DNA of 10,502 bases from Anaerolineae bacterium (GTDB lineage: Bacteria; Chloroflexota; Anaerolineae; JACIWP01), in NCBI GenBank assembly GCA_028275445.1, contig JAPWUQ010000091.1, positions 1 through 10,502 on the forward strand. Direction: 5' to 3'. This document shows positions 433 through 10,163 of this stretch, piece after piece; position 1 is the stretch's first letter; every line of letters starts with the position of its first letter. The notes under the pieces are model-generated. The model did no database searches. It was not told the DNA's origin and saw only the letters and a list, made by a program, of their open reading frames with translations. The translations under genes and the position numbers were made by a program.

Positions 433-960
433 ATGCAGTTACAGGAGGCATTGGACATTCTGATTCGGGCGATGGTCAACGAGCAGGACGGCTACGACTT
501 TTACGTGGCGGCCGCCGGCCGGGTGAGCGATCCCAAGGGCAAAAAGATGTTCATGAGCCTGGCGAACGACGAGCTGGGGCATCTGCACATCATCAAGACG
601 GAATATGATAAGGTCACCGCCGGCGGCGGCTTTGTCAACCTCGACGAGGCGCGGCGGAGCCTCCCTCCCGACCCTTCCCTTCAGCTCTTCCCGGATAAGC
701 GCCAGGTACAGCGCATGCTGGAAGCCGCCACGGACGACGAAGCCGCTCTGCGCATCGCCCTGGATTTCGAGCAGAAGGGCTATCACATGTATTCCGACGC
801 GGCACAGCGCAGTACGGACCGCAACGCACAGGAGGTCTTCCGCTTCCTGGCGGATCAGGAGAGCCAGCATTATGAACTCATCCAGAACACCCTGCACTTC
901 CTGACGGACAGCGGGGTCTGGTACTTCCAGGACTCGGAGAAGCCGTTCTTTGAGGGATAA
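433..960 (+). CDS. Ferritin-like diiron four-helix-bundle protein (rubrerythrin/ferritin-like superfamily), 175 aa
   Basis: The RBS aaaGGAGcgg sits 5-8 nt upstream of the ATG. Motifs are E(18) in VNEQDGYDFY, ExxH in NDELGHLH, E in DFEQKGYHMY, and ExxH in DQESQHYE, the classic E/ExxH/E/ExxH diiron ligand pattern. A long loop of about 35 aa lies between helices B and C. No recognisable C-terminal encapsulin targeting peptide is present. Confidence 0.7.
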   Translation: MQLQEALDILIRAMVNEQDGYDFYVAAAGRVSDPKGKKMFMSLANDELGHLHIIKTEYDKVTAGGGFVNLDEARRSLPPDPSLQLFPDKRQVQRMLEAATDDEAALRIALDFEQKGYHMYSDAAQRSTDRNAQEVFRFLADQESQHYELIQNTLHFLTDSGVWYFQDSEKPFFEG

Positions 961-1029: not shown

Positions 1030-1533
1030 ATGCGCAAGATGACCAAATCCAATCTGGAAGCGGCCTTCGCCGGCGAAAGCATGGCCCACATGAGGTACTC
1101 CATCTTCGCCGACAAGGCGCGGGAAGAGGGCTTCAACAACGTGGCCCGACTGTTTGAAGCCATCGCCTATGCCGAACGGGTCCATGCGACCAACCACCTG
1201 CGGGTGCTGGGGGGCATTGGCCATTCCACCAATAACCTCCAGACCGCCATTGACGGCGAGACCTTCGAGGTGGAAGAGATGTATCCCGCCTATCGGGTGG
1301 TGGCGGAATCGCAGGACGAGAAGGGTGCCGTGGTGAGCACCACTTACGCGCTGGAAGCGGAGAAGATCCATGCCGCGCTGTACACCGAGGCCAAGCAGGC
1401 GGTGGAGGCCGGCAAAGACATCGAGCCGCGCGATATCTTCATCTGCAGTGTGTGCGGCTACACCGGCTACGGGGAACCGCCGGATGTCTGCCCGGTCTGC
1501 AAGGCCAAGAAAGACAAGTTCCGCTTGTTCTAA
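1030..1533 (+). CDS. rbr: Rubrerythrin (N-terminal diiron ferritin-like domain + C-terminal rubredoxin-like Cys4 domain), 167 aa
   Basis: The RBS cAGGAGGtgg is upstream. The N-terminus 'AAFAGESMAHMRYSIFADKAREEG...AYAERVHA' is typical of rubrerythrin. The C-terminus 'CSVCGYTGYGEPPDVCPVCKAKK' gives a CxxC...CxxC rubredoxin-like Fe(Cys)4 site. Confidence 0.93.
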   Translation: MRKMTKSNLEAAFAGESMAHMRYSIFADKAREEGFNNVARLFEAIAYAERVHATNHLRVLGGIGHSTNNLQTAIDGETFEVEEMYPAYRVVAESQDEKGAVVSTTYALEAEKIHAALYTEAKQAVEAGKDIEPRDIFICSVCGYTGYGEPPDVCPVCKAKKDKFRLF

Positions 1534-1566: not shown

Positions 1567-1731
1567 ATGAAGAAATGGGAATGCCTGGCCTGCGGCTACA
1601 TCTATGACCCGGCGAAAGGGGACCCCGAAGCCGGCATCGCCCCCGGCACCCCCTTCGAAGACCTGCCTGATGATTGGGTCTGCCCCGAGTGCGGCGCCGC
1701 CAAGGACATGTTTGAGCCGGTAGAGGAATAA
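1567..1731 (+). CDS. Rubredoxin, 54 aa (not in the supplied ORF track because it is under 60 aa)
   Basis: Manual translation gives [54 protein letters not shown]. It has the canonical CxxCG(Y)xYD and CPxCG rubredoxin knuckles. An AGGAGG RBS lies 8 nt upstream, and the TAA stop is at 1729-1731. Confidence 0.9.
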
Positions 1732-1817: not shown

Positions 1818-3038
1818 ATGCGCTATGTGATCATTGGGCAGGGGGTGGCCGGCGTCAACGCCGCGCGCAGTCTGGCCCAGGTCCGCTCCAACGATGATGA
1901 AATCCATATCTATACCGATGAGCAATACCTCTATTATCCCCGGCCGCGCCTGCCGGCCTTCCTGGCCGGCGAGATCACCCTCGATGAGCTGATCCTGTAC
2001 CCGGCCGAGTGGTACGAGAAGCGCGGCATCCAGGTGCATCTCGGCCAGACGGTGACAGCGGTGGACCCGAGGGCCCGAAACATCACCCTGGCGGACGGCC
2101 GGCGGGTGGAATATGACCGCCTCCTGCTGGCCAACGGAAGCCGGCCCAATGTCCCGCCCATCAAGGGCGCGGACAAGAAGGGCGTTTTCACCCTGCGCAC
2201 CATCGCCAATGCCCTGGAAATCCAGGCCTTCGCCCGCACGGTCGAGCGCGCGGTGGTCATCGGCGGGGGGCTGTTGGGCCTGGAAGCGGCGCGAGCGGTC
2301 AGCGCCCTTGGGCCGAAGGTCACGGTGGTGGAGTTCTTCGAGCGCCTGCTCCCCCGCCAGCTCGACTTCGAAGGGGCGCAGGTGCTCCAGCGCGAGATGG
2401 AGCGCTTTGGCCTGACCATCATCACCGGCGCCGCCACGGAGGAGATCCTCGGCGACGGCGCAGTGCGCGGCATCCGGCTGAAAGACGGCCGGGAGATCCC
2501 TGGCGAGATGGTGCTCATCTCCGCCGGCATCCGCCCCAACACCGAGCTGGCCGCGGCCGCCGGCATCCAGGTCCAGCGCGGTGTGGTGGTGGATAACGCC
2601 ATGCGCACCTCCGCCGAGGATATCTGGGCGGCCGGCGATGTGGCGGAGTTCGAGGGGCGCATCTGGGGCATCGTGACCGCGGCGACGGAGCAGGCGCGCG
2701 TCGCGGCCGCCAATATGGCCGCGCCGGCGGGGGAAACGCCGGCGACCTACGTGGACATCATCCCGTCCAACACCCTGAAGGTGGTGGGCATTGACCTCAC
2801 CTCCATCGGCCTGGTGAACCCCGAGGGGGATGGCTATGAGGAAGTGCGGCGCGTGGACGAGGCGGCCGGCCGCTATGAAAAACTGGTGCTCAAGGACGGC
2901 CGCATCGTCGGCGCCATCCTGCTGGGCAATAAGGACAAGGTGCGGCCGGTCACCGAAGCTATCACCCGCAAAATCGATGTCTCCGCGCATAAAGAGGCGC
3001 TGTTGGACGATGCGTTCGATTGGAATTCCCTGCTGTAA
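1818..3038 (+). CDS. NAD(P)H:rubredoxin oxidoreductase (FAD-dependent pyridine nucleotide-disulfide oxidoreductase family)
   Basis: The N-terminal FAD Rossmann motif 'MRYVIIGQGVAGVNAARSL' (GxGxxG) starts at the ATG at 1818, with AGGAGG 9 nt upstream. A second Rossmann motif 'AVVIGGGLLGLEAARAV' binds NAD. 'AAGDVAE' is near the C-terminal FAD contact. The gene sits directly downstream of rubredoxin. The alternative ATG at 1731 overlaps the rd stop (TAATG) but would add a 29-aa Arg/Pro/Gly-rich extension that spans a 14-bp hairpin, so 1818 is preferred. Confidence 0.85.
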   Translation: MRYVIIGQGVAGVNAARSLAQVRSNDDEIHIYTDEQYLYYPRPRLPAFLAGEITLDELILYPAEWYEKRGIQVHLGQTVTAVDPRARNITLADGRRVEYDRLLLANGSRPNVPPIKGADKKGVFTLRTIANALEIQAFARTVERAVVIGGGLLGLEAARAVSALGPKVTVVEFFERLLPRQLDFEGAQVLQREMERFGLTIITGAATEEILGDGAVRGIRLKDGREIPGEMVLISAGIRPNTELAAAAGIQVQRGVVVDNAMRTSAEDIWAAGDVAEFEGRIWGIVTAATEQARVAAANMAAPAGETPATYVDIIPSNTLKVVGIDLTSIGLVNPEGDGYEEVRRVDEAAGRYEKLVLKDGRIVGAILLGNKDKVRPVTEAITRKIDVSAHKEALLDDAFDWNSLL

Positions 3039-3076
3039 CGTCGGGGATACCGCATAAGGTCATATGAGGGAGGGAT

Positions 3077-4021
3077 ATGGACAAGGAAAAGATTATCGAG
3101 CTACTGCATCGGGATATGCAGGATGAGCATGCCGCCGTCATCCAGTACTTGCGCCACGCCTATGCCTTTGGCGAAGGGGAGTTGGCGGCGGAACTGGAGG
3201 CCATTGCCCGCGAGGAAATGCAGCATTTCCGCTGGCTGGCGGATATTGTGGTGGGCCTGGGCGGGAAGCCCAGCATGGTGCGGGGTGAAGTGGTCTTCAA
3301 CGGCCCCAAAATCGTGGATATGCTCCAGGCCGACGTGGAGGCGGAGCAGAGGGCCATTGATCAGTATCTGACCCACATCGCTCTGATTGATGACCCGGAA
3401 ATCGTGGAGGTCCTGCGGCGTATCGTGGCGGATGAGCGCGCCCATATGGGTAAGTTCGAGAAATACGCCGGCGAACAGGACCCCTCAGCCGAAGTCCGCA
3501 TGGAGCCGACCATCACCGAGGCCGACCGCCCTAAGGCGGAGTACCTCCAAAAAGACCTGAAGCATGAGTACACCGTCGTGCTCCAGTACCTGGCCCATGC
3601 CTTCATGACGCCGCACTGCGAGGTCGAACACGAGATGGAATGGCAGGCCATCGAGGAAATGCGCCACATGGGCTGGCTGGCCGAGGAGATGGAATCGCTG
3701 GGCACCCGCGCCGAGATGGTGCATGATCCCCTGATCCTGCCGGATGCGACGGCGGAGATGCTCCAGGCCGACATCGCCATCGAGAAGGAGGTGTCTTCGG
3801 AGTACCGCCGGCAGGCGCTCTCCCTGGGCGCGTCGGACCTGGCCGACCTGTTAGAGCGCATTGCCGGCGAGGAGGACCACCACGTGGTGGTCTTCTCCAA
3901 GCTGTTGGGGGAAGTGGAAGAAGCCGAAAAGCCGGCCCAGCCGGCGGTCAAGCCGGCCTCGTCGGCCGGCGCCAAACCCGGCTTCACCGTTGGAAGCCTG
4001 TTGGGCAAACCGCAGAAGTAA
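3077..4021 (+). CDS. Candidate encapsulin cargo: tandem double ferritin-like/rubrerythrin-like diiron protein (314 aa) with C-terminal flexible linker and cargo-loading peptide
   Basis: The RBS GAGGGAGGG is upstream. There are two internally repeated four-helix-bundle halves. Domain A has approx. E17, E47xxH50, E88/E90 and E120xxH123. Domain B has E164, E194xxH197, E236/E238 and E265/266xxH268/269. A Pro/Ala-rich linker 'EVEEAEKPAQPAVKPASSAGAKP' is followed by the C-terminal 'GFTVGSLLGKPQK' (nt 3980-4018). This resembles family-1 encapsulin targeting peptides such as the '...LTVGSLR..' type recalled for the Myxococcus EncB/C cargo. The gene ends 33 nt before an encapsulin shell gene. Confidence 0.8.
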   Translation: MDKEKIIELLHRDMQDEHAAVIQYLRHAYAFGEGELAAELEAIAREEMQHFRWLADIVVGLGGKPSMVRGEVVFNGPKIVDMLQADVEAEQRAIDQYLTHIALIDDPEIVEVLRRIVADERAHMGKFEKYAGEQDPSAEVRMEPTITEADRPKAEYLQKDLKHEYTVVLQYLAHAFMTPHCEVEHEMEWQAIEEMRHMGWLAEEMESLGTRAEMVHDPLILPDATAEMLQADIAIEKEVSSEYRRQALSLGASDLADLLERIAGEEDHHVVVFSKLLGEVEEAEKPAQPAVKPASSAGAKPGFTVGSLLGKPQK

Positions 4022-4054
4022 CGCAAGCCACCGCGAACATCAGGAGGTATACCG

Positions 4055-4828
4055 ATGACCGATTTGTTGCTGCGCGAGAACGCTCCGTTCGATGCGTCTT
4101 TCTGGCAGATGATTGATGAGGAGGTGCGCGTCGTGGCCTCCCAGCATCTGGTGGGGCGCCGATTTCTCCACCTGGTGGGGCCGCTGGGCGCCGGCGCCCT
4201 GGGCGTGCCGGTCTCCCATCTGGATGTGGAGGGTGCGCCGCGCGTGACCAGCCGCGAGCTGGTGCCCTTCACCACGCTGAGCAAAGAGTTCGTGCTGGCC
4301 TGGGAGGATTTCACCACGGCGGAGCAGTTCGGTCTCCCGCTGGAGCTGGGGCCAGTGGCTATCGCCACCATCCAGTTGGCCGCCGAGGAGGATGGGCTGA
4401 TCTTCGCCGGCCTGCGCCAGGCCAAGGGCACCCATCACGTCTCCCTGGAGAAATGGTCGGAGAGCGGCGGCGCCCTGGCCACGGTGAGCGCGGCGCTGGA
4501 GAAGCTGATGAGCGCCGGCATCTACGGGCCTTACGTGCTGGTGCTGAGCGCCCCGCTGTATGCCCAGGCACAGCGCATCATGGCCAACACCGATGAGCTG
4601 GAGCTGGAGTTCATCGAGGAGTTGGTGGATAAGGTGTACTTCTCGCCCCATTTGCCGGCGAAGGAGGGCTTCCTTATCGCCAACGCGCCCTATAACCTCG
4701 ACCTGGCATTGGCGATGGATATGAGCGTCGCCTATATGGGGAATGAGGGCATGGATCACCGCTTCCGCCTTTTGGAGCGCGTCGCCCTGCGGTTGAAGCA
4801 TCCGCAGGCGGTCTGTGTGCTGAAATAA
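4055..4828 (+). CDS. Family 1 encapsulin shell protein (HK97-fold, Linocin_M18/PF04454-type), 257 aa
   Basis: AGGAGG lies 7 nt upstream. It aligns by eye with the Thermotoga maritima encapsulin. 'ENAPFDASFWQMIDEEV...LVGRRFLHLVGPLG' matches 'SFAPLTEKQWQEIDNRA...LYGRKFVDVEGPYG'. 'SAGIYGPYVLVLS' matches 'KDGIEGPYTLVIN'. C-terminal 'LDLALAMDMSVAY' matches 'FKLILGQDLSIGY'. The length fits a T=1-type family-1 shell. Confidence 0.9.
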   Translation: MTDLLLRENAPFDASFWQMIDEEVRVVASQHLVGRRFLHLVGPLGAGALGVPVSHLDVEGAPRVTSRELVPFTTLSKEFVLAWEDFTTAEQFGLPLELGPVAIATIQLAAEEDGLIFAGLRQAKGTHHVSLEKWSESGGALATVSAALEKLMSAGIYGPYVLVLSAPLYAQAQRIMANTDELELEFIEELVDKVYFSPHLPAKEGFLIANAPYNLDLALAMDMSVAYMGNEGMDHRFRLLERVALRLKHPQAVCVLK

Positions 4829-4834
4829 CCTCTT

Positions 4835-4889
4835 GCGGGCATGGGCCGGCTGGCGAACCCCGCCGCTCCTGCCAGCCGGCCCATGCCGC
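4835..4889 (+). terminator. Strong GC hairpin immediately after the encapsulin stop (17-bp perfect stem GGCATGGGCCGGCTGGC/GCCAGCCGGCCCATGCC, ~16-nt loop) with no U-tract. Putative U-less terminator/attenuator or RNA-stability element.
   Basis: Read directly: 4838-4854 is the reverse complement of 4871-4887, and flanking G-C pairs extend the stem to 19 bp. It lies between the shell stop (4828) and the CorA start (4914). Confidence 0.55.
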
Positions 4890-4913: not shown

Positions 4914-5828
4914 ATGGCACTGCAGGCCGTGACCGAGGCCGGCAGCATGTGGGTGCACATCGCGCCCCTGTCTTCGGAAGACCTGGAGTATCTGCGCCGG
5001 CATTTCCGCTTCCATCCTCTCGACCTGGAAGACCTGACCAGCAAGACCGAACACCCCAAGTTGGATATCTACGACGATTACTTCTTTGCGGTGATGCATT
5101 TTCCGGTCTACAACACCACGCACCGCTTCAGCGCGCCCTGCGAACTGCACTGCTTCGTGGGGGCCAATTACGTGGTGACGGTGCATGACGGCCGGCTGAA
5201 ACCGGTGGATGACCTCTTCGCGGAGTGTCAGCGCAATCCCGTCCTGCGCCAGGACGTGTTGGGGAAAGGTGCCGGCCGGCTGTTCTATGTCATCCTCGAC
5301 CGGCTGGTGGATTACATCTTCCCCATGCTGGGCAGAGTGGGCGGGGAGATATCAGAGATCGAGGAAGAGCTGTTCAGCGCCGACATGGGGGAACTGATCA
5401 CGCGCATCGCCTACCTGCGGCGCGATATTATCACCCTGCGGAGCATCCTTCAGCCGCAGAAGATGGTCATCAGCCACTTAGAGGCGGAGCGCTTCCCGTT
5501 TTTGCCGGCGGAAATGAAAGCCTATTTCGGCGACATCCTGGACGGCTTCACCCGAGCGCTGGACCTGGTGCAGAACTATCATGAGGTCATCCAGAGCCTG
5601 AGCGATACCAGCATGGCCCTGACGTCCTACCGCATCAACGAGGTGATGCGCATCCTGACCATCATATCGGTCATCCTGCTTCCGCTGAGCCTGATCAGCG
5701 GGATTTACGGCATGAATATCGCCCTGCCGCTGGCCGATTCCCCCTGGGCGTTCCTGGTGATCCTGGGCTGGATGGCGCTGGTCGCCGGCATCATGCTGGC
5801 CTTTTTCCGCCGGCGCGGTTGGCTGTGA
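4914..5828 (+). CDS. corA: CorA-family Mg2+/Co2+ (divalent cation) transporter
   Basis: The C-terminal two-TM region carries the signature 'YGMNI' (GMN motif), followed by the second TM 'WAFLVILGWMALVAGIMLAFF' and a basic tail. There is an N-terminal cytoplasmic alpha/beta domain. The start was chosen at the ATG at 4914 (GGGAGAG RBS). The track's ORF start at 4833 lies inside the hairpin and is rejected. An ATG at 4947 is also possible. Confidence 0.88.
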   Translation: MALQAVTEAGSMWVHIAPLSSEDLEYLRRHFRFHPLDLEDLTSKTEHPKLDIYDDYFFAVMHFPVYNTTHRFSAPCELHCFVGANYVVTVHDGRLKPVDDLFAECQRNPVLRQDVLGKGAGRLFYVILDRLVDYIFPMLGRVGGEISEIEEELFSADMGELITRIAYLRRDIITLRSILQPQKMVISHLEAERFPFLPAEMKAYFGDILDGFTRALDLVQNYHEVIQSLSDTSMALTSYRINEVMRILTIISVILLPLSLISGIYGMNIALPLADSPWAFLVILGWMALVAGIMLAFFRRRGWL

Positions 5829-5883: not shown

Positions 5884-7230
5884 TCAGGCCAGGAGGAGGT
5901 AGGGGCGCTCGATGAGCTGTTTGACGCGCTGGAGGAAGCGGGCCGCCGGCGCGCCGTCGTTGATGCGGTGATCGAAGGTCAGGCTGAGCACCATCATGGG
6001 GCGGATGACCACCTGGCCGTTGACGGCCGCCGGCTTTTCCACGATGCGGCCGACGCCCAGGATGGCGCATTCGGGCAGGTTGATGATGGGGGTGAAGCCG
6101 TCCACATCATACATCCCCAGGTTGGTGATGGTGAAGGTGCCGCCGCTGAGGTCGTCCGGCAGACTGCGGCCGGCGCGCGCCCGTTCTACCAGCTCGCGGA
6201 ACTCGCTCACGATGTCACCAAGCCGTTTGGAAGCCACATCGCGGATGACCGGCACCAGCAGGCCGCGCTCCGTGTCTACCGCGACCCCGATGTTGATGAC
6301 CCCCAGTTGTTCGATGCGGTTCTCCACCAACCTGGCGTTCATGTTGGGATGTTCCTGCAGTGCCCTGGCGACGATGAGCACCAGGATCTCATTGTATCCA
6401 GGCACCACGCCGCCGGGCAGGGGGGACTGCTTGAAGCTCTCGCGCAACTGCACCAGCGCGGTGGCGTCCACCTCGGTGAAGAGGGTCACTGCGGCGGTGG
6501 TGTGGGCGCTGGCGCTCATGCGTTCGGCGATGATGGCGCGCACGCCGGCCATCGGGATGGCCTGTACGGCCGGCGCGGGGGCCGGCGCCGCCGGCGTCAC
6601 CGGCATGGCGGCGCGTTCCACCGCCAATTTGGTGATGCGCTCCGGGCCGGCGGCCAGCGTCTCCAGGGGCACGCCCATTTCCTCAGCCAGTTTGCGGGCG
6701 GCCGGCGTCGCCTTCGGCAGGGAAGCGGCATAGGCCAGCACATCCCGCTCCACGATGCGGCCGCCTGGTCCGGTGCCGGTGATGCGCTCCAGGGGCACGC
6801 CCAACTGTCGGGCGGCCATGCGCGCCCTGGGAGAGGCAAACCGCCGGCCTTCCGGTGCAGGCGGTGCTTCCGGGGCGGATGGGGCGGCCGGCGCGGCAGG
6901 GGCGGCCGCCGGCGCGGGGGCCGATGGTGCGGTGGCCGGCGCGGCGGTTTCCGGCGCGGCCGCCGGCTTCAGGTAGCGGCTGATATCCTCGCCCGGCTCC
7001 CCGATAATTCCCACTACTTCCAGGATGGGGACCGTCTCGCCGGGATGGCGCAGGATTTTGAGCAGGGTGCCGCTGGCCGGCGCCTCCGCTTCCAGCGCCG
7101 CCTTGTCCGACTCGAACTTGAAGATGGGCTCGCCCTTTTTGACGGTGTCGCCTTCTTTGACGTACCACTCGATGATGGTGCCGGCCTCCATGGTCTGGCC
7201 CATCTTGGGCATAATCACTTCTTTCGCCAT
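5884..7230 (-). CDS. Dihydrolipoamide acyltransferase (E2) of a 2-oxoacid dehydrogenase complex: lipoyl domain, two peripheral-subunit-binding domains, catalytic domain
   Basis: The start 'MAKEVIMPKMGQTMEAG' has a GGAG RBS and lies 20 nt after the E1 stop. The lipoyl motif is 'FESDKAALE', with the lipoyl-Lys codon at 7102-7104. Ala/Pro linkers are present. PSBD-1 is 'SPRARMAARQLGVPLERITGTGPGGRIVERDV'. PSBD-2 is degenerate: 'TPAARKLAEEMGVPLETLAAGPERITKLAV'. The catalytic 'DHRxxDG' motif is 'TFDHRINDGAPAARF'. The track ORF (to 7518) over-extends into E1. Confidence 0.92.
   Translation of the reverse strand: MAKEVIMPKMGQTMEAGTIIEWYVKEGDTVKKGEPIFKFESDKAALEAEAPASGTLLKILRHPGETVPILEVVGIIGEPGEDISRYLKPAAAPETAAPATAPSAPAPAAAPAAPAAPSAPEAPPAPEGRRFASPRARMAARQLGVPLERITGTGPGGRIVERDVLAYAASLPKATPAARKLAEEMGVPLETLAAGPERITKLAVERAAMPVTPAAPAPAPAVQAIPMAGVRAIIAERMSASAHTTAAVTLFTEVDATALVQLRESFKQSPLPGGVVPGYNEILVLIVARALQEHPNMNARLVENRIEQLGVINIGVAVDTERGLLVPVIRDVASKRLGDIVSEFRELVERARAGRSLPDDLSGGTFTITNLGMYDVDGFTPIINLPECAILGVGRIVEKPAAVNGQVVIRPMMVLSLTFDHRINDGAPAARFLQRVKQLIERPYLLLA
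6850..6966 (-). repeat. Low-complexity GC-rich tract encoding the Ala/Pro-rich inter-domain linker of E2 (PAAAPETAAPATAPSAPAPAAAPAAPAAPSAPEAPPAPE)
   Basis: The DNA is runs of GCSGCCGGCGCG-type imperfect repeats, and the protein linker is typical of E2 lipoyl-arm hinges. Confidence 0.7.
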
Positions 7231-7250
7231 GGCGCTACTCCTATCCCTGA

Positions 7251-9323
7251 TTAATACACCAGTTGACGGACGGCGGCCTCGATGCGCTCGACGTTCGGGA
7301 TGGCCGCATCCTCCAGCGTCTCCGCCATGGGGACCGGCACATCCGCCGCCGCCACCCGCACCATCGGCGCATCCAGATAATCGAATGCCAGCTCGTTGAT
7401 GATGGTGAAGACCTCGCTGATGAAACTGCCGGTCTTGTAGGCCTCCGTGACCCCGACGACGCGCCCGGTCTTCTTGACCGATTCGATGATGGTGTCCACG
7501 TCGAGGGGCTTCAAGCACCGCAGGTCCACCACCTCGACATCAATGCCCTCTTTGGCAAGGTTCTCGGCGGCCTCCAGGGCGCGCAGGACCATGCGGGAGT
7601 AGGTGATGATGGTGACATCCTTGCCTGGGCGCTTGATGTCGGCGACGCCCAGGGGGATGGTGTATTCCTCTTCGGGCACCGGCCCTTTGGTGCCGTAGAG
7701 CATCTTGTGCTCGATGAACATGATGGGGTTATCGTTGCGGATGCACTCTTTGAGCAGGCCCTTGGCGTCGTACGGGGTGGCCGGCATGACCACATAGATG
7801 CCCGGGAAGTGGGTCCACAGCGCTTCCAGGCTCTGGGAGTGGTGCGCGGCGATGGAGCGGCCGGCGCCCCCTTCGGTGCGGATGACCATGGGCACCTTGG
7901 TCTTGCCGCCGAACATATAGCGGTTCTTGGCGCCCTGATTGGCGATCTGGTCCATGGCCAGCGGGGTGAAGTCCACGTACATGATCTCGGCGACCGGGCG
8001 CATGCCGGTCATGGCGGCGCCCACTGCCGCGCCGCCGATGGCGGCCTCGGAGATGGGCGTGTCAATGACCCGCTCCGGCCCAAATTCCTGGTACAGCCCG
8101 CGCGTGGCGCCATATGCCCCGCCGTACAGGCCGACATCCTCGCCCATGATGAAGACGTGGGGATCGCGCTTCATCTCCTCGCGGAAGGCCTCCACCAGCG
8201 CCTCCCAATAGTAAATCTGGCGCATGTTGGGGTCACTGCGCACCCGCTCCCGCAGTTCCCGCTCTTTGGCGATCTGGCTGGGCGTATAGATCGTCGGGAC
8301 GTAGACGTCGTCGTACAGCTCGGAGGGGTCGGGGAAGGGGGAGTTCAGGGCGAAATCAATGGAGATTTCGACGGCCTTCTCGCAGGCTTTGGCCAGCTCG
8401 TCCAGCTCCTGCTGGGTGACTAGGCCGGCCTCCAGCATGCGCCGCTCCAGGTTGGTGATGGGGTCGCGTTCCTTCCAGGCCTTCTCCTCCTCGCGGGTGC
8501 GGTACACGCGCGGGTCGGAGCGCGAATGCCCGTACCAGCGGTAGGTCTTGCATTCGATGAGGGACGGCCCTTCCCCGCGGCGGGCGCGCTCCACGGCGCG
8601 GGAGACGGCGTCGCGCACGGCCAGCACATCCATGCCGTCCACCACCTCGCCCGGGATGCAGTAGGCGCAGGCGCGATCGGCGATGTTCTTACAGCTCGAG
8701 GCCTTTTCAAAGGGCACGGACATGCCGTACAGGTTGTTCTCCACGATGTAGACGACGGGAAGCTTCCAGATGGCGGCCATGTTGAGCGATTCGTGGAAGT
8801 TGCCGGTGTTGGCCGCGCCGTCGCCGAAGAAGCAGAGCACCACGCGGTCCGATTTCTGGAGTTTCATGGAGAGGCCGGCGCCGGTGGCCACGGGGATGTT
8901 GCCGCCCACGATGCCGGTGGCGCCCAGGTTGCCGCGCTCCACGTCGGCGATGTGCATGGAGCCGCCGCGGCCGCGGCAGTAGCCGGTGGAGCGCCCGCAC
9001 AGCTCCGCCATCATTTTGTTCAGGTGCTCCTGCTTCTCCTCGGGGGTTTTGGCGAGCCGGTCGCCGCGGGCGTAGCAATGTCCGTGGCCGCGATGGGTGC
9101 TGGTGATGAGATCGTCATCGCGCAGGACGCTGATGGCGCCGACGGCGACGGCTTCCTGGCCGGCGTACAGGTGGGACGCGCCCTTGATGATGTTGCGGCC
9201 CAATAGGTCATAGACCGCTTCCTCAAAGTTGCGGATGATGCGCATCTGGCGCAGGTAATCCAGCAAATCCTCGCGGGTGATGCCCTGTGCCTGCATGATG
9301 GTCTTCAAGTCGGTGACGTTCAT
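7251..9323 (-). CDS. Fused E1 alpha-beta component of a 2-oxoacid (pyruvate/acetoin/branched-chain) dehydrogenase, TPP-dependent, 690 aa
   Basis: The N-terminal half is E1-alpha: 'YAGQEAVAVGA...HRGHGHCYARG', the TPP motif 'GDGAANTGNFHESLNMAAIWKLPVVYIVENN', and 'YRWYGHSRSDP'. The C-terminal half is E1-beta: 'GEDVGLYGGAYGATRGLYQEFGPERVIDTPISEAAIGGAAVGAAMTGMRPV' plus the C-terminal transketolase-like domain. The RBS GAGGAG is 5 nt upstream of the ATG at 9323. Confidence 0.9.
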   Translation of the reverse strand: MNVTDLKTIMQAQGITREDLLDYLRQMRIIRNFEEAVYDLLGRNIIKGASHLYAGQEAVAVGAISVLRDDDLITSTHRGHGHCYARGDRLAKTPEEKQEHLNKMMAELCGRSTGYCRGRGGSMHIADVERGNLGATGIVGGNIPVATGAGLSMKLQKSDRVVLCFFGDGAANTGNFHESLNMAAIWKLPVVYIVENNLYGMSVPFEKASSCKNIADRACAYCIPGEVVDGMDVLAVRDAVSRAVERARRGEGPSLIECKTYRWYGHSRSDPRVYRTREEEKAWKERDPITNLERRMLEAGLVTQQELDELAKACEKAVEISIDFALNSPFPDPSELYDDVYVPTIYTPSQIAKERELRERVRSDPNMRQIYYWEALVEAFREEMKRDPHVFIMGEDVGLYGGAYGATRGLYQEFGPERVIDTPISEAAIGGAAVGAAMTGMRPVAEIMYVDFTPLAMDQIANQGAKNRYMFGGKTKVPMVIRTEGGAGRSIAAHHSQSLEALWTHFPGIYVVMPATPYDAKGLLKECIRNDNPIMFIEHKMLYGTKGPVPEEEYTIPLGVADIKRPGKDVTIITYSRMVLRALEAAENLAKEGIDVEVVDLRCLKPLDVDTIIESVKKTGRVVGVTEAYKTGSFISEVFTIINELAFDYLDAPMVRVAAADVPVPMAETLEDAAIPNVERIEAAVRQLVY

Positions 9324-9341
9324 GTTCTCCTCTTACCCCTT

Positions 9342-10163
9342 TTATCGTTCTGGTCTGCGCAAGGGCAGTGTTGGGACGGGTGATGCGGCCGGCTCCTGGA
9401 GCGGGGCGACGCGCACATCCACGCCGGCGGCGCGGAGGCGCGCAATCACATCCGCCGGCGTCCGCTCATCGGTGATGATGCGGTCGAAGGCCTGGATGGG
9501 GGCTACAATGGCGTAGGAAGTGCGCCCGAACTTGGTGTGATCCACCAGCAGGATCTTCTGGCGGGCGATTTCCAGCATGGCCGCCTTGACCTCCGCCTCG
9601 TACAGGTTGCTGTTGGTGACGCCGGCCTCCAGGGAGATGGCCGGCGTGGCCAGGAAGGCCTTGTCGGCGGTGAAGCGGCGCAGGGCGGCCACCGCCAGCG
9701 GCCCGACGAAGGAAGCAGTCGGCTCCCATAGGGCGCCGCCGGTGTGGATGACGGTGATGTCCGGCGCTCCGATGAGGATGTTGACGACGTAGAGGGAGTT
9801 AGTGATGACGGTGAGATGGCGTTTGCCGATGAGCCGGCGGGCGAAATGGGCGATGGTGGTGCCGGCGTCCAGCACGATGGTGTCGCCGTCCTCCACCAGT
9901 TCCGCCGCCAGGCGGGCGATGGCCTCTTTCTCGGCCAGTTGGGTGCCTTCGCGGGCATAATAGGGCAGGTCGCCGGGGGGATATTTCAGCAGTACCGCGC
10001 CGCCGTGGGTGCGCCGCAGGACGCCGCGCTCCTCCAGCCGCGCCAGGTCCCGGCGGATGGTCATCTCCGAGACGCCAAGCTCCTCGCTCAATTCCGCCAC
10101 GGAGACGCTCTGCCGCTCGTTGATCAATTGGAGGATCCTGGTCTGGCGTTCTGCCGGCTGCAT
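9342..10163 (-). CDS. DeoR-family transcriptional regulator (N-terminal HTH + DeoR C-terminal sugar-phosphate-binding domain)
   Basis: The sequence is 'MQPAERQTRILQLINERQSVSVAELSEELGVSEMTIRRDLARLEERG' (DeoR HTH) followed by 'TIVLDAGTTIAH...LTVITNSL' of the DeoR C-domain. The start is the ATG at 10163, preceded by a GGGGTGGGG purine tract. The 23-aa extension in the track is discounted. The stop is 18 nt before the E1 start, so they are likely co-transcribed. Confidence 0.85.
   Translation of the reverse strand: MQPAERQTRILQLINERQSVSVAELSEELGVSEMTIRRDLARLEERGVLRRTHGGAVLLKYPPGDLPYYAREGTQLAEKEAIARLAAELVEDGDTIVLDAGTTIAHFARRLIGKRHLTVITNSLYVVNILIGAPDITVIHTGGALWEPTASFVGPLAVAALRRFTADKAFLATPAISLEAGVTNSNLYEAEVKAAMLEIARQKILLVDHTKFGRTSYAIVAPIQAFDRIITDERTPADVIARLRAAGVDVRVAPLQEPAASPVPTLPLRRPER

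Follow-up and report, generated by a model that had tools for sequence, protein, structure and literature searches.

A Family 1 encapsulin shell gene paired with a double ferritin-like cargo gene in an uncultured Anaerolineae bacterium

The question raised by positions 3077–4828 of the window, by which the whole analysed stretch of 10,502 nucleotides is meant, is whether two adjacent genes of an uncultured Anaerolineae bacterium (Chloroflexota) encode a complete encapsulin nanocompartment and what such a compartment would be used for. The initial annotation had read the two genes as the cargo and shell of a Family 1 operon unit, and this reading is supported by hidden Markov model matches, the predicted fold, the C-terminal peptide of the cargo, the co-occurrence of peptide and shell gene, and purifying selection. 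With a probability of roughly 0.85, we consider the segment to be a complete Family 1 encapsulin unit, which combines an HK97-fold shell with a double ferritin-like protein (DFLP) as cargo and serves iron oxidation and storage. As this type of system has been described before, the locus is a new example of it and not a discovery.

The gene pair and its encapsulin shell

Both open reading frames are intact and lie at the positions, on the shared strand and with the 33-nt spacing that had been given for them; they also share a reading frame, with one TAA and 11 codons between them. The motifs quoted for the shell (NAPFDASFWQMIDEE...GRRFLHLVGPLG, GIYGPYVLVLS and DMSVAY) and for the tail of the cargo (...AKPGFTVGSLLGKPQK) are all present, and ribosome binding sites precede both genes, as had been reported. 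The features of the pair are as follows:

3066–3074 (+): Shine-Dalgarno-like GAGGGAGGG preceding the cargo ATG (3077), read directly from the sequence
3077–4021 (+): cargo gene, DFLP, 314 aa (Pfam PF00210, match to 9viw_A, AF2 model, dN/dS)
3077–3475 (+): N-terminal four-helix ferritin domain, residues 1–133 (AF2 helices 3–31, 35–60, 79–103 and 107–133)
3518–3928 (+): C-terminal four-helix ferritin domain, residues 148–284 (AF2 helices 148–177, 181–207, 225–250 and 254–284)
3929–3976 (+): flexible Pro/Ala/Lys/Ser linker, residues 285–300 (pLDDT 55–59, no secondary structure)
3977–4018 (+): C-terminal targeting peptide PGFTVGSLLGKPQK, residues 301–314, fitting [LF]-x-[VI]-G-x-[LI]
4042–4047 (+): ribosome binding site AGGAGG, 7 nt ahead of the shell ATG, read directly from the sequence
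4055–4828 (+): shell gene, Family 1 encapsulin, 257 aa, HK97 fold (NF041155, PF04454, AF2 model)

The scores of the shell against models of its family are far beyond chance. The NCBIfam equivalog NF041155 ("family 1 encapsulin nanocompartment shell protein") is matched over residues 5–256 with 209.6 bits, more than twice its cutoff of 100. Pfam PF04454, the model proposed as a check in the initial annotation, reaches 182.2 bits where 24.3 are required (E = 1.4e-53). Among solved shells, M. xanthus EncA (4pt2; T=3) is closest by sequence (E = 4.8e-43, ~37% identity), although the window shell lacks three EncA segments of 8, 5 and 8 residues; the Q. thermotolerans shell (6nj8) was matched with E = 1.5e-39. 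The T. maritima encapsulin, which had been put forward as comparator, does align along the whole length (residues 4–257 to 3dkt 3–264, E = 1.7e-11), but the M. xanthus and Q. thermotolerans shells are far closer: the T. maritima shell, while also belonging to Family 1, shares only ~22–23% identity and superimposes with a TM-score of ~0.8 and an rmsd of 5.6–6 Å.

The HK97-like fold that had been expected is predicted by AF2 with a pLDDT of 91.7. In a Foldseek search this model reached TM-scores of 0.89–0.93 to the shells of M. xanthus, D. quercicolus and Q. thermotolerans (0.90 for the latter), and each of the best 50 matches was the structure of an encapsulin or a related shell particle, with TM-scores of up to 0.93. 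In the model, a helix at residues 14–31 appears to take the place of the N-arm of phage capsids. The N-terminal region of encapsulin shells has been described to form a helix that belongs to the peptide-binding pocket (PMC8346489); of the 24 invariant columns in the shell alignment, 11 fall within the first 45 residues. Compared with its orthologue in the related locus L009, the shell gene shows a dN/dS of 0.107, which indicates purifying selection.

As encapsulins have the fold of HK97 capsids and misannotation of shell genes is common (PMC8346489), the 257-aa protein might be taken for a degenerate major capsid protein of an HK97-like prophage with a fortuitous ferritin-like neighbour. This is practically impossible and can be regarded as effectively refuted: the encapsulin-specific equivalog is passed at twice its cutoff, a PHROGs search with the shell protein gave no match, and no terminase, portal, protease or tail genes occur within ±10 kb in locus L001, where the surroundings consist solely of redox, metabolic and transport genes. 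The N-terminal helix in place of an extended N-arm, the selective constraint and the conserved pairing with a peptide-bearing cargo (see below) argue in the same direction.

One element of the initial annotation found no support. A T=1 particle of ~24 nm had been expected, whereas the nearest shells (M. xanthus, Q. thermotolerans, B. methanolicus and D. quercicolus) form T=3 or T=4 particles. The shell belongs to a short subclade (257–259 aa) of this T=3/T=4 lineage, a length distribution that stems from a small sample, namely 20 proteins from a word-indexed homologue search plus the related loci.

The cargo as a double ferritin-like protein

The domains of the cargo had been left unassigned in the initial annotation. 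The protein is a DFLP, a group also referred to as "Bfr-type" cargo. Pfam Ferritin (PF00210) matches it in two stretches (E = 7.5e-25), and the AF2 model (pLDDT 93.5) comprises eight long helices that form two four-helix bundles, followed by a disordered tail. The two halves align to each other with a score of 189. The chain thus holds two tandem ferritin domains which are related by duplication. The best solved relative is the DFLP of Thermocrinis minervae (TmDFLP, 9viw_A), which covers both domains (residues 3–272, E = 4.8e-38). This tie rests on the sequence search because the PDB copy used for the fold search did not include 9viw; there, Foldseek returned only single-domain bacterioferritins and 12-mer mini-bacterioferritins.

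Each of the two domains contains a complete bacterioferritin-type EEHEEH set of di-iron ligands. In the N-terminal domain these are E17, E47, H50, E90, E120 and H123, with M48 as heme-ligand candidate, and they match E17, E47, H50, E92, E122, H125 and M48 of TmDFLP. The C-terminal domain contributes E164, E194, H197, E236, E266 and H269, with M195 as heme-ligand candidate. All 12 di-iron ligands and both methionines are invariant in 56 aligned DFLPs. M48 and M195 correspond to M48 and M198 of TmDFLP and are candidate heme ligands. Unlike the C-terminal domain described here, that of TmDFLP has an ESHEEH site, and only 57% of DFLP C-terminal domains are reported to be canonical at this position (10.1101/2025.09.13.676036). 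Furthermore, Cys181 aligns with the cysteine that forms an inter-protomer disulfide in TmDFLP (C184). The cargo gene is under purifying selection as well (dN/dS = 0.056 against the L009 orthologue).

Two other ferritin-like families were considered for the cargo and rejected. An EncFtn/EncB-type ferritin does not fit, as the score for NF058679 (EncB_fam), 57.8 bits, stays below the cutoff of 90 and matches to models of this type are limited to residues 76–143; for the model of encapsulin-associated ferritin-like proteins (TIGR04535), 33.8 of the required 125 bits are reached. In this respect the cargo differs from M. xanthus EncB and EncC, each of which is a single half-ferritin of EncFtn type that assembles into decamers, and from the T. 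maritima cargo, likewise an EncFtn-type decamer. A classical bacterioferritin is also not indicated: the equivalog TIGR00754 gives 48.4 bits where 125.55 are required, and the cargo has 314 aa and two bundles in one chain in place of a single subunit of ~158 aa. Nevertheless, each DFLP domain has the bacterioferritin fold and bacterioferritin-type di-iron ligands, and the inter-domain methionine pair mimics the inter-subunit heme site of bacterioferritin.

This likeness bears on the oligomeric state. When such two-bundle cargos were first catalogued as "Bfr", with Chloroflexi among the phyla listed, it was assumed that they form a bacterioferritin-like cage of their own, which would result in a shell-within-a-shell iron store (Andreas and Giessen, 2021; PMC8346489). 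The closeness of each domain to bacterioferritins and 12-mer mini-bacterioferritins would agree with such an arrangement. However, TmDFLP and the DFLP of Caldanaerovirga acetigignens (CaDFLP) are reported as monomers or dimers and never as cages, based on SEC-MALS, SAXS, a crystal structure and AlphaFold3 modelling (Anuchina et al., preprint 2025; 10.1101/2025.09.13.676036), and the low score against the bacterioferritin equivalog speaks against it, too. A cage inside the shell is therefore very improbable, and the cargo is expected to be a small oligomer, presumably a dimer, by homology with TmDFLP.

Targeting peptide and coupling to the shell gene

A Gly/Ser/Leu-rich C-terminal peptide of docking type behind a Pro/Ala linker had been proposed for the cargo, and its similarity to a "LTVGSLR"-like motif of M. 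xanthus EncB/C had been pointed out; both observations hold. The core of the peptide is FTVGSL (residues 303–308, nt 3983–4000), which fits the Family 1 motif defined as [LF]-x-[VI]-G-x-[LI] and is identical to the structurally defined peptide core of the Q. thermotolerans cargo IMEF and to that of CaDFLP; LTVGSL of M. xanthus EncB/C/D, also structurally defined, is nearly identical (10.1101/2025.09.13.676036). The core of the T. maritima cargo peptide is shorter (LGIRK). Towards the L009 orthologue the peptide shows no substitution at all, while the preceding linker varies, with 5 of the 24 amino-acid differences between the two cargos falling into residues 291–299. Across homologues both length and sequence of the linker vary, whereas most of them carry a TVGSL-type tail.

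The presence of the peptide is strongly coupled to that of a shell gene. Among 77 usable loci (out of 88 related loci), a shell gene follows within 400 nt downstream in 19 of the 20 with a peptide-bearing DFLP and in none of the 57 without (Fisher p = 4e-17), a statistic which is inflated by shared ancestry, as the peptide-bearing loci are mostly from Anaerolineae and the peptide-less ones mostly from Dehalococcoidia. The order of cargo and then shell on the same strand is repeated in these 19 loci. The exception, L047, has a peptide-bearing DFLP and no shell gene within 8 kb.

Apart from the DFLP, no further cargo with a TVGSL-type motif was found among the real genes of the 20 peptide-bearing loci; the only two other matches are spurious and lie in short antisense open reading frames. 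The motif is also absent from the C-termini of the two rubrerythrin-like products encoded at 433–960 and 18–401 of the window. The idea that rubredoxin, reductase and rubrerythrins encoded upstream are co-packaged by means of the same peptide was dropped, as none of them carries it.

Gene neighbourhood and possible function

The genes upstream and downstream of the pair, together with one RNA element, are:

433–960 (+): rubrerythrin/ferritin-like protein, 175 aa (PF02915, E = 1e-12)
1030–1533 (+): rubrerythrin with C-terminal rubredoxin-like domain, 167 aa (PF02915, E = 1.2e-24; PF21349, E = 1.6e-11)
1567–1731 (+): rubredoxin, 54 aa, CxxCG...CPxCG (PF00301, matched by the identical L001 gene)
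1818–3038 (+): NAD(P)H:rubredoxin-oxidoreductase-like flavoprotein, 406 aa (Pyr_redox_2, E = 1.4e-62; Rubredoxin_C, E = 3.7e-20)
4838–4887 (+): perfect 17-bp inverted repeat (stable RNA hairpin) with 100% complementary arms, lying past the shell stop codon and ahead of corA
4914–5828 (+): CorA-family divalent-metal channel, 304 aa (PF01544, E = 1.5e-67; TIGR00383, 209.6 bits, cutoff 200.75)

The gene at 18–401, which is cut by the window start, encodes a second rubrerythrin-like protein similar to the product of 433–960. Together, the rubrerythrin-type genes, rubredoxin and reductase constitute a peroxide-detoxification set as it is found in anaerobes, and rubrerythrin, rubredoxin and reductase genes recur upstream in related loci. 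The reductase gene, which is also called as a gene in L001, ends 38 nt ahead of the cargo gene and is its probable operon partner; a reductase lies upstream of the DFLP in 13 of 19 loci with the targeting peptide versus 1 of 49 without. For rubredoxin (within 3 kb upstream) the corresponding counts are 11 of 19 and 24 of 49. Rubredoxin and rubrerythrin genes have also been noted near CaDFLP (10.1101/2025.09.13.676036), while a reductase-like gene abutting the cargo is not discussed in the available portions of this preprint and of PMC8346489. The operon context, with three rubrerythrin-type genes, a rubredoxin and a reductase upstream, can be seen as a modestly new point.

Such a neighbourhood invites the view that the encapsulated DFLP is mainly a rubredoxin-dependent peroxidase, comparable to a split rubrerythrin, and that the compartment serves as a nanoreactor for peroxide detoxification instead of storing iron. 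Electrons would then pass from NADH via the reductase and rubredoxin to the di-iron or heme site of the DFLP and on to H2O2. The position of the cargo gene directly 3′ of the rubrerythrin, rubredoxin and reductase-like genes, the frequency of rubredoxin genes upstream of DFLPs and a match of the cargo to the Rubrerythrin Pfam model (E = 1.1e-10) are in line with this, as is the oxygen response of P. furiosus, which pairs rubrerythrin with a ferritin-like/encapsulin fusion (10.1101/2025.03.19.643997). Yet, as rubredoxin and reductase have no targeting peptide, a folded donor protein would need a way across the shell or would have to pass electrons through it. In addition, ferroxidase activity was demonstrated for TmDFLP, the window already provides for the peroxidase task with a bona fide rubrerythrin gene, and the synteny may just mirror a single oxidative-stress regulon. 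We therefore consider a primarily peroxidatic compartment quite unlikely.

Iron oxidation and sequestration under oxidative stress is the most likely function of the pair in this bacterium. By homology, a course of assembly, packaging, ferroxidase activity and mineralisation can be proposed. The 257-aa shell protein would self-assemble into an icosahedral cage, and FTVGSL, held on a flexible linker of ~16 residues, would dock in a luminal pocket to which the N-terminal helix and the P-domain of the shell contribute, so that the DFLP would be packaged while the shell assembles. The di-iron centres, for which both domains hold the full ligand set, would oxidise Fe2+, possibly with a heme bound between the domains via Met48 and Met195, and Fe3+ would mineralise within the shell; the storage container would be the shell and not the ferritin fold. 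TmDFLP, a dimer with demonstrated ferroxidase activity, contains sub-stoichiometric heme in solution, whereas heme is absent from its crystal (10.1101/2025.09.13.676036); the biochemically studied DFLPs share only ~40–50% identity with the cargo described here. As the pair ends a same-strand cluster of peroxide-detoxification genes, the physiological role would most likely be the clearing of Fenton-active Fe2+ under oxygen or peroxide stress, in addition to iron storage.

It is unlikely, though worth consideration, that rubredoxin and the NADH:rubredoxin-reductase-like flavoprotein are dedicated electron-supply partners of the encapsulated heme/di-iron cargo. Such a chain might act as Bfd does on bacterioferritin, reducing and releasing the stored iron, or might drive peroxide reduction inside the shell, and since neither protein has a targeting peptide, electrons would have to be delivered across or through the shell. 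An accessory electron carrier is also encoded in the operon of the iron-mineralising Q. thermotolerans encapsulin (T=4), where a ferredoxin has been proposed to aid iron release (PMC8346489). However, this ferredoxin has an N-terminal TVGSL peptide, and the IMEF cargo belongs to a different family with a single four-helix bundle. If the redox genes do service the compartment, the locus would be relevant to the question of how stored iron is retrieved from encapsulins.

Among known systems, that of C. acetigignens is most similar in layout: a DFLP of ~300–320 aa with two bundles, di-iron ligands, two methionines and FTVGSL is followed immediately by a Family 1 shell gene whose product is nearest to M. 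xanthus EncA. The system described here differs from this type in its host, an uncultured member of the Anaerolineae, and in the affiliation of its shell with the short subclade. The M. xanthus system likewise combines its shell with ferritin-like ferroxidase cargos for iron sequestration, and in T. maritima (T=1) a Family 1 shell is combined with the ferritin-like cargo Flp, which has a C-terminal peptide. The locus is a clean case of a Family 1 encapsulin with Bfr/DFLP-type cargo and adds little to the catalogue of Andreas and Giessen (2021) and to the 2025 preprint, in which DFLPs were characterised as encapsulin-targeted ferroxidases (Anuchina et al.; 10.1101/2025.09.13.676036). Its value is that of a well-behaved test case, with complete di-iron sites, heme methionines, the dimer-interface cysteine, a compact shell of 257–259 aa and a conserved rubrerythrin, rubredoxin and reductase cluster around the pair.

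The boundaries of the operon could not be set by a promoter and terminator consensus scan, as it gave nothing above shuffle expectation. An Rfam scan of the whole window yielded no family match, and the hairpin before corA is therefore no known riboswitch; as it lacks a T tract, the terminator scan did not classify it as an intrinsic terminator either. Downstream of it, corA is also called as a gene in L001. The hairpin folds with −50.3 kcal/mol (z = −5.0) and is kept in L009 with one compensatory change, and it possibly acts as an operon boundary, an attenuator or an mRNA-stabilising element.

The gene pair and the encapsulin shell

The initial annotation had placed a cargo gene and a Family 1 encapsulin shell gene side by side on the same strand, 33 nt apart, and the sequence bears out both open reading frames exactly:

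3077-4021, + strand, cargo gene, 314 aa
4055-4828, + strand, Family 1 encapsulin shell gene, 257 aa

Every peptide motif quoted for them is found in the window, as are the strong ribosome binding sites, with AGGAGG 7 nt ahead of the shell ATG and GAGGGAGGG directly ahead of the cargo ATG. The two genes are in frame with each other, with one TAA and 11 codons between them, and stop-codon read-through would give a cargo-shell fusion. This is probably a coincidence, as the phase is not kept in a related locus (L002), with its start-to-start distance of 1028 nt.

The shell protein was recognized by Pfam PF04454 (182.2 bits, cutoff 24.3, E=1.4e-53), the search proposed initially, as well as by the NCBIfam equivalog NF041155 'family 1 encapsulin nanocompartment shell protein' (209.6 bits, cutoff 100, residues 5-256), and its close relatives carry automatic annotations as Family 1 encapsulin shell proteins. 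The proposed full-length alignment with the Thermotoga maritima encapsulin does exist (query 4-257, chain 3-264), but only at E=1.7e-11. Among PDB sequences, the top hits were EncA of M. xanthus (4pt2, E=4.8e-43) and the shell of Q. thermotolerans (6nj8, E=1.5e-39), both far better. In Foldseek, an AF2 model calculated from 17 homologues (pLDDT 91.7) grouped with the solved shells of M. xanthus, Q. thermotolerans, B. methanolicus and D. quercicolus (TM 0.89-0.93, rmsd 1.6-3.6 A), whereas the matches to T. maritima and M. tuberculosis, whose shells are T=1, were poorer (TM ~0.8, rmsd 5.6-6 A). These values point to the HK97-type fold that had been claimed, while the better matches to T=3/T=4 shells do not support the expected T=1 particle of ~24 nm. 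Compared to the T=3 shell EncA, stretches of 8, 5 and 8 residues are missing from the window shell. The first and second of these are located in the E-loop region, and all three occur in the closest solved relatives (T=3/T=4). The shell falls into a compact subclade of 257-259 aa. Eleven of the 24 invariant columns in the shell homologue alignment lie within the first 45 residues, i.e., the N-terminal helix region, which contributes to the peptide-binding pocket of Family 1 shells (PMC8346489).

As the shell yielded no match in PHROGs and the +/-10 kb around it are free of phage genes in the source contig (L001, a 79-kb metagenome contig matching the window, its DFLP differing at one residue), a prophage capsid can be excluded, and it is hardly conceivable that the shell is a prophage remnant.

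A double ferritin-like cargo and its targeting peptide

For the cargo, the initial annotation described the tail but left the body undescribed. This body identifies the cargo as a double ferritin-like protein (DFLP). Pfam Ferritin hits it in two stretches, and the AF2 model (pLDDT 93.5) predicts one four-helix bundle at residues 3-133 and another at 148-284, with a tail of low confidence behind them. Its closest solved relative is the DFLP of Thermocrinis minervae (TmDFLP, 9viw_A, E=4.8e-38, residues 3-272). Among 56 aligned homologues, the putative ligands E17, E47, H50, E90, E120 and H123 in the N-terminal domain and E164, E194, H197, E236, E266 and H269 in the C-terminal domain are invariant, and so are M48 and M195. 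By alignment, these ligands match the di-iron site of TmDFLP, the two methionines its proposed heme ligands M48/M198, and Cys181 the cysteine of its inter-protomer disulfide. Both cargo domains carry a canonical EEHEEH set, unlike TmDFLP, which has a Ser at one C-terminal-domain position; canonical C-terminal domains are reported for only 57% of DFLPs in Anuchina et al. 2025 (10.1101/2025.09.13.676036). The cargo stays below the cutoffs of the curated models for classical bacterioferritins (48.4 bits, cutoff 125.55) and for EncB/EncFtn cargos (57.8 against 90 and 33.8 against 125).

The bundles are followed by two further elements:

Cargo residues 285-300, Pro/Ala/Lys/Ser linker
Cargo residues 301-314, targeting peptide PGFTVGSLLGKPQK

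The FTVGSL of this peptide conforms to the Family 1 motif [LF]-x-[VI]-G-x-[LI], is the same as in the peptides of Q. thermotolerans IMEF and the Caldanaerovirga acetigignens DFLP (CaDFLP), and differs by a single residue from LTVGSL of M. xanthus EncB/C/D. Among the best 120 cargo homologues, 67 have the strict motif within their last 30 residues and ~20 more a close variant (e.g., PTVGSL, WTVGSL); the others are proteins of ~280 aa ending directly past the last helix. Relative to the 92%-identical orthologue in locus L009, the dN/dS values are 0.056 (cargo) and 0.107 (shell); linker residues 291-299 hold five substitutions, and the peptide is free of any.

Related loci (88 fetched, 77 usable) were scored with an HMM of the shell, counting same-strand genes that follow within 400 nt. 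A shell gene was found in 19 of 20 loci with a TVGSL-type tail vs. none of 57 tail-less ones (Fisher p=4e-17), a statistic inflated by shared ancestry, as most loci with the tail come from Anaerolineae and most of those lacking it from Dehalococcoidia. The exception is L047, whose DFLP (2626-3606) carries a clear targeting peptide (PTVGSLFGQKQE) and is followed by 8 kb in which no shell gene occurs. This DFLP may belong to a remote shell gene as a secondary cargo, an idea put forward for TmDFLP (Anuchina et al. 2025). In the peptide-bearing loci the DFLP is the sole carrier of a TVGSL-type motif.

Judging from homologues, the basis for inferring assembly, packaging, ferroxidase activity and dimer state, we consider it likely (probability roughly 0.85) that the shell would assemble around DFLP dimers held by FTVGSL, and that Fe2+ would enter via shell pores, be oxidized at the di-iron sites and mineralize in the lumen. 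A Bfr-like cage formed inside the shell is very improbable, as it is contradicted by oligomer data for TmDFLP and CaDFLP, which are monomers or dimers (Anuchina et al. 2025).

Andreas and Giessen 2021 (PMC8346489) already describe 'Bfr' cargos with two four-helix bundles and conserved C-terminal peptides from Firmicutes, Aquificae, Chloroflexi and Cyanobacteria, and the DFLP family was established by Anuchina et al. 2025, who also solved the TmDFLP structure, demonstrated ferroxidase activity and linked FTVGSL to encapsulins. Given these papers and the annotated shell relatives, the locus is therefore a further example of a described system; only the tight synteny of reductase, DFLP and shell and the compact subclade of the latter are modestly new.

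Redox and metal-transport genes around the pair

Upstream of the cargo gene lies a redox cluster:

18-401, + strand, rubrerythrin-like gene, cut by the window start (165 aa in L001)
433-960, + strand, rubrerythrin-like gene (175 aa in L001)
1030-1533, + strand, rubrerythrin
1567-1731, + strand, rubredoxin, 54 aa, between rubrerythrin and reductase
1818-3038, + strand, rubredoxin-reductase-like flavoprotein (Pyr_redox_2 and Rubredoxin_C), directly upstream of the cargo gene

The rubredoxin is easily overlooked below a 60-aa ORF threshold, and the 435-aa reductase ORF from 1731 is an over-extension of the gene called at 1818. The first two paralogues matched the EncB cargo family weakly and below threshold (E=3.6e-4 and 2.2e-6), and neither has a targeting peptide. 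The reductase is found upstream of 13/19 peptide-bearing DFLPs vs. 1/49 peptide-less ones, which may reflect clade-specific synteny, as these counts carry no phylogenetic correction. A rubredoxin gene occurs at most 3 kb upstream in 11/19 and 24/49, respectively, and at most 1 kb upstream on the same strand in 20 of the 49 peptide-less DFLPs, which suggests a DFLP-rubredoxin partnership independent of encapsulation. In peptide-less, shell-less Dehalococcoidia loci (L014, L019, L023, L024, L027, L028 and others) the rubredoxin ORF is often immediately upstream. Rubredoxin and rubrerythrin genes are likewise reported close to CaDFLP (Anuchina et al. 2025). That the encapsulated cargo acts as a rubredoxin-driven peroxidase appears unlikely; the encapsulin system probably limits Fenton chemistry in this anaerobe alongside the peroxide-detoxifying rubrerythrin, rubredoxin and reductase genes. 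Encapsulin and rubredoxin occur together in only two papers of the library searched; according to one of these, ferritin-like/encapsulin-fusion particles are enclosed in rubrerythrin tubules in oxygen-stressed P. furiosus (10.1101/2025.03.19.643997).

The region downstream of the shell gene contains:

4838-4887, + strand, perfect 17-bp inverted repeat (hairpin) between the shell stop codon and corA
4914-5828, + strand, CorA-family channel gene
5884-7230, - strand, 2-oxoacid dehydrogenase E2 gene
7251-9323, - strand, fused E1 alpha-beta gene, 690 aa
9341-10162, - strand, DeoR-family regulator gene
L001 17237-18055, - strand, VIT1-family (vacuolar iron transporter-like) gene, ~5 kb beyond corA

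The hairpin (-50.3 kcal/mol, z=-5.0) has neither a T tract nor an Rfam match and is kept in L009 (9764-9813), where one pair has changed in a compensatory manner; this element may mark an operon boundary or act as an attenuator or an mRNA stabilizer. For corA, ATG 4914 is the called start, and the ORF from TTG 4833 is an over-extension. The opposite-strand genes at 5884-10162 appear unrelated to the encapsulin unit. The nearest named relatives of the window are Anaerolineae MAGs. With the CorA-family channel and the VIT1-family gene, the cluster is flanked by metal-transport genes.
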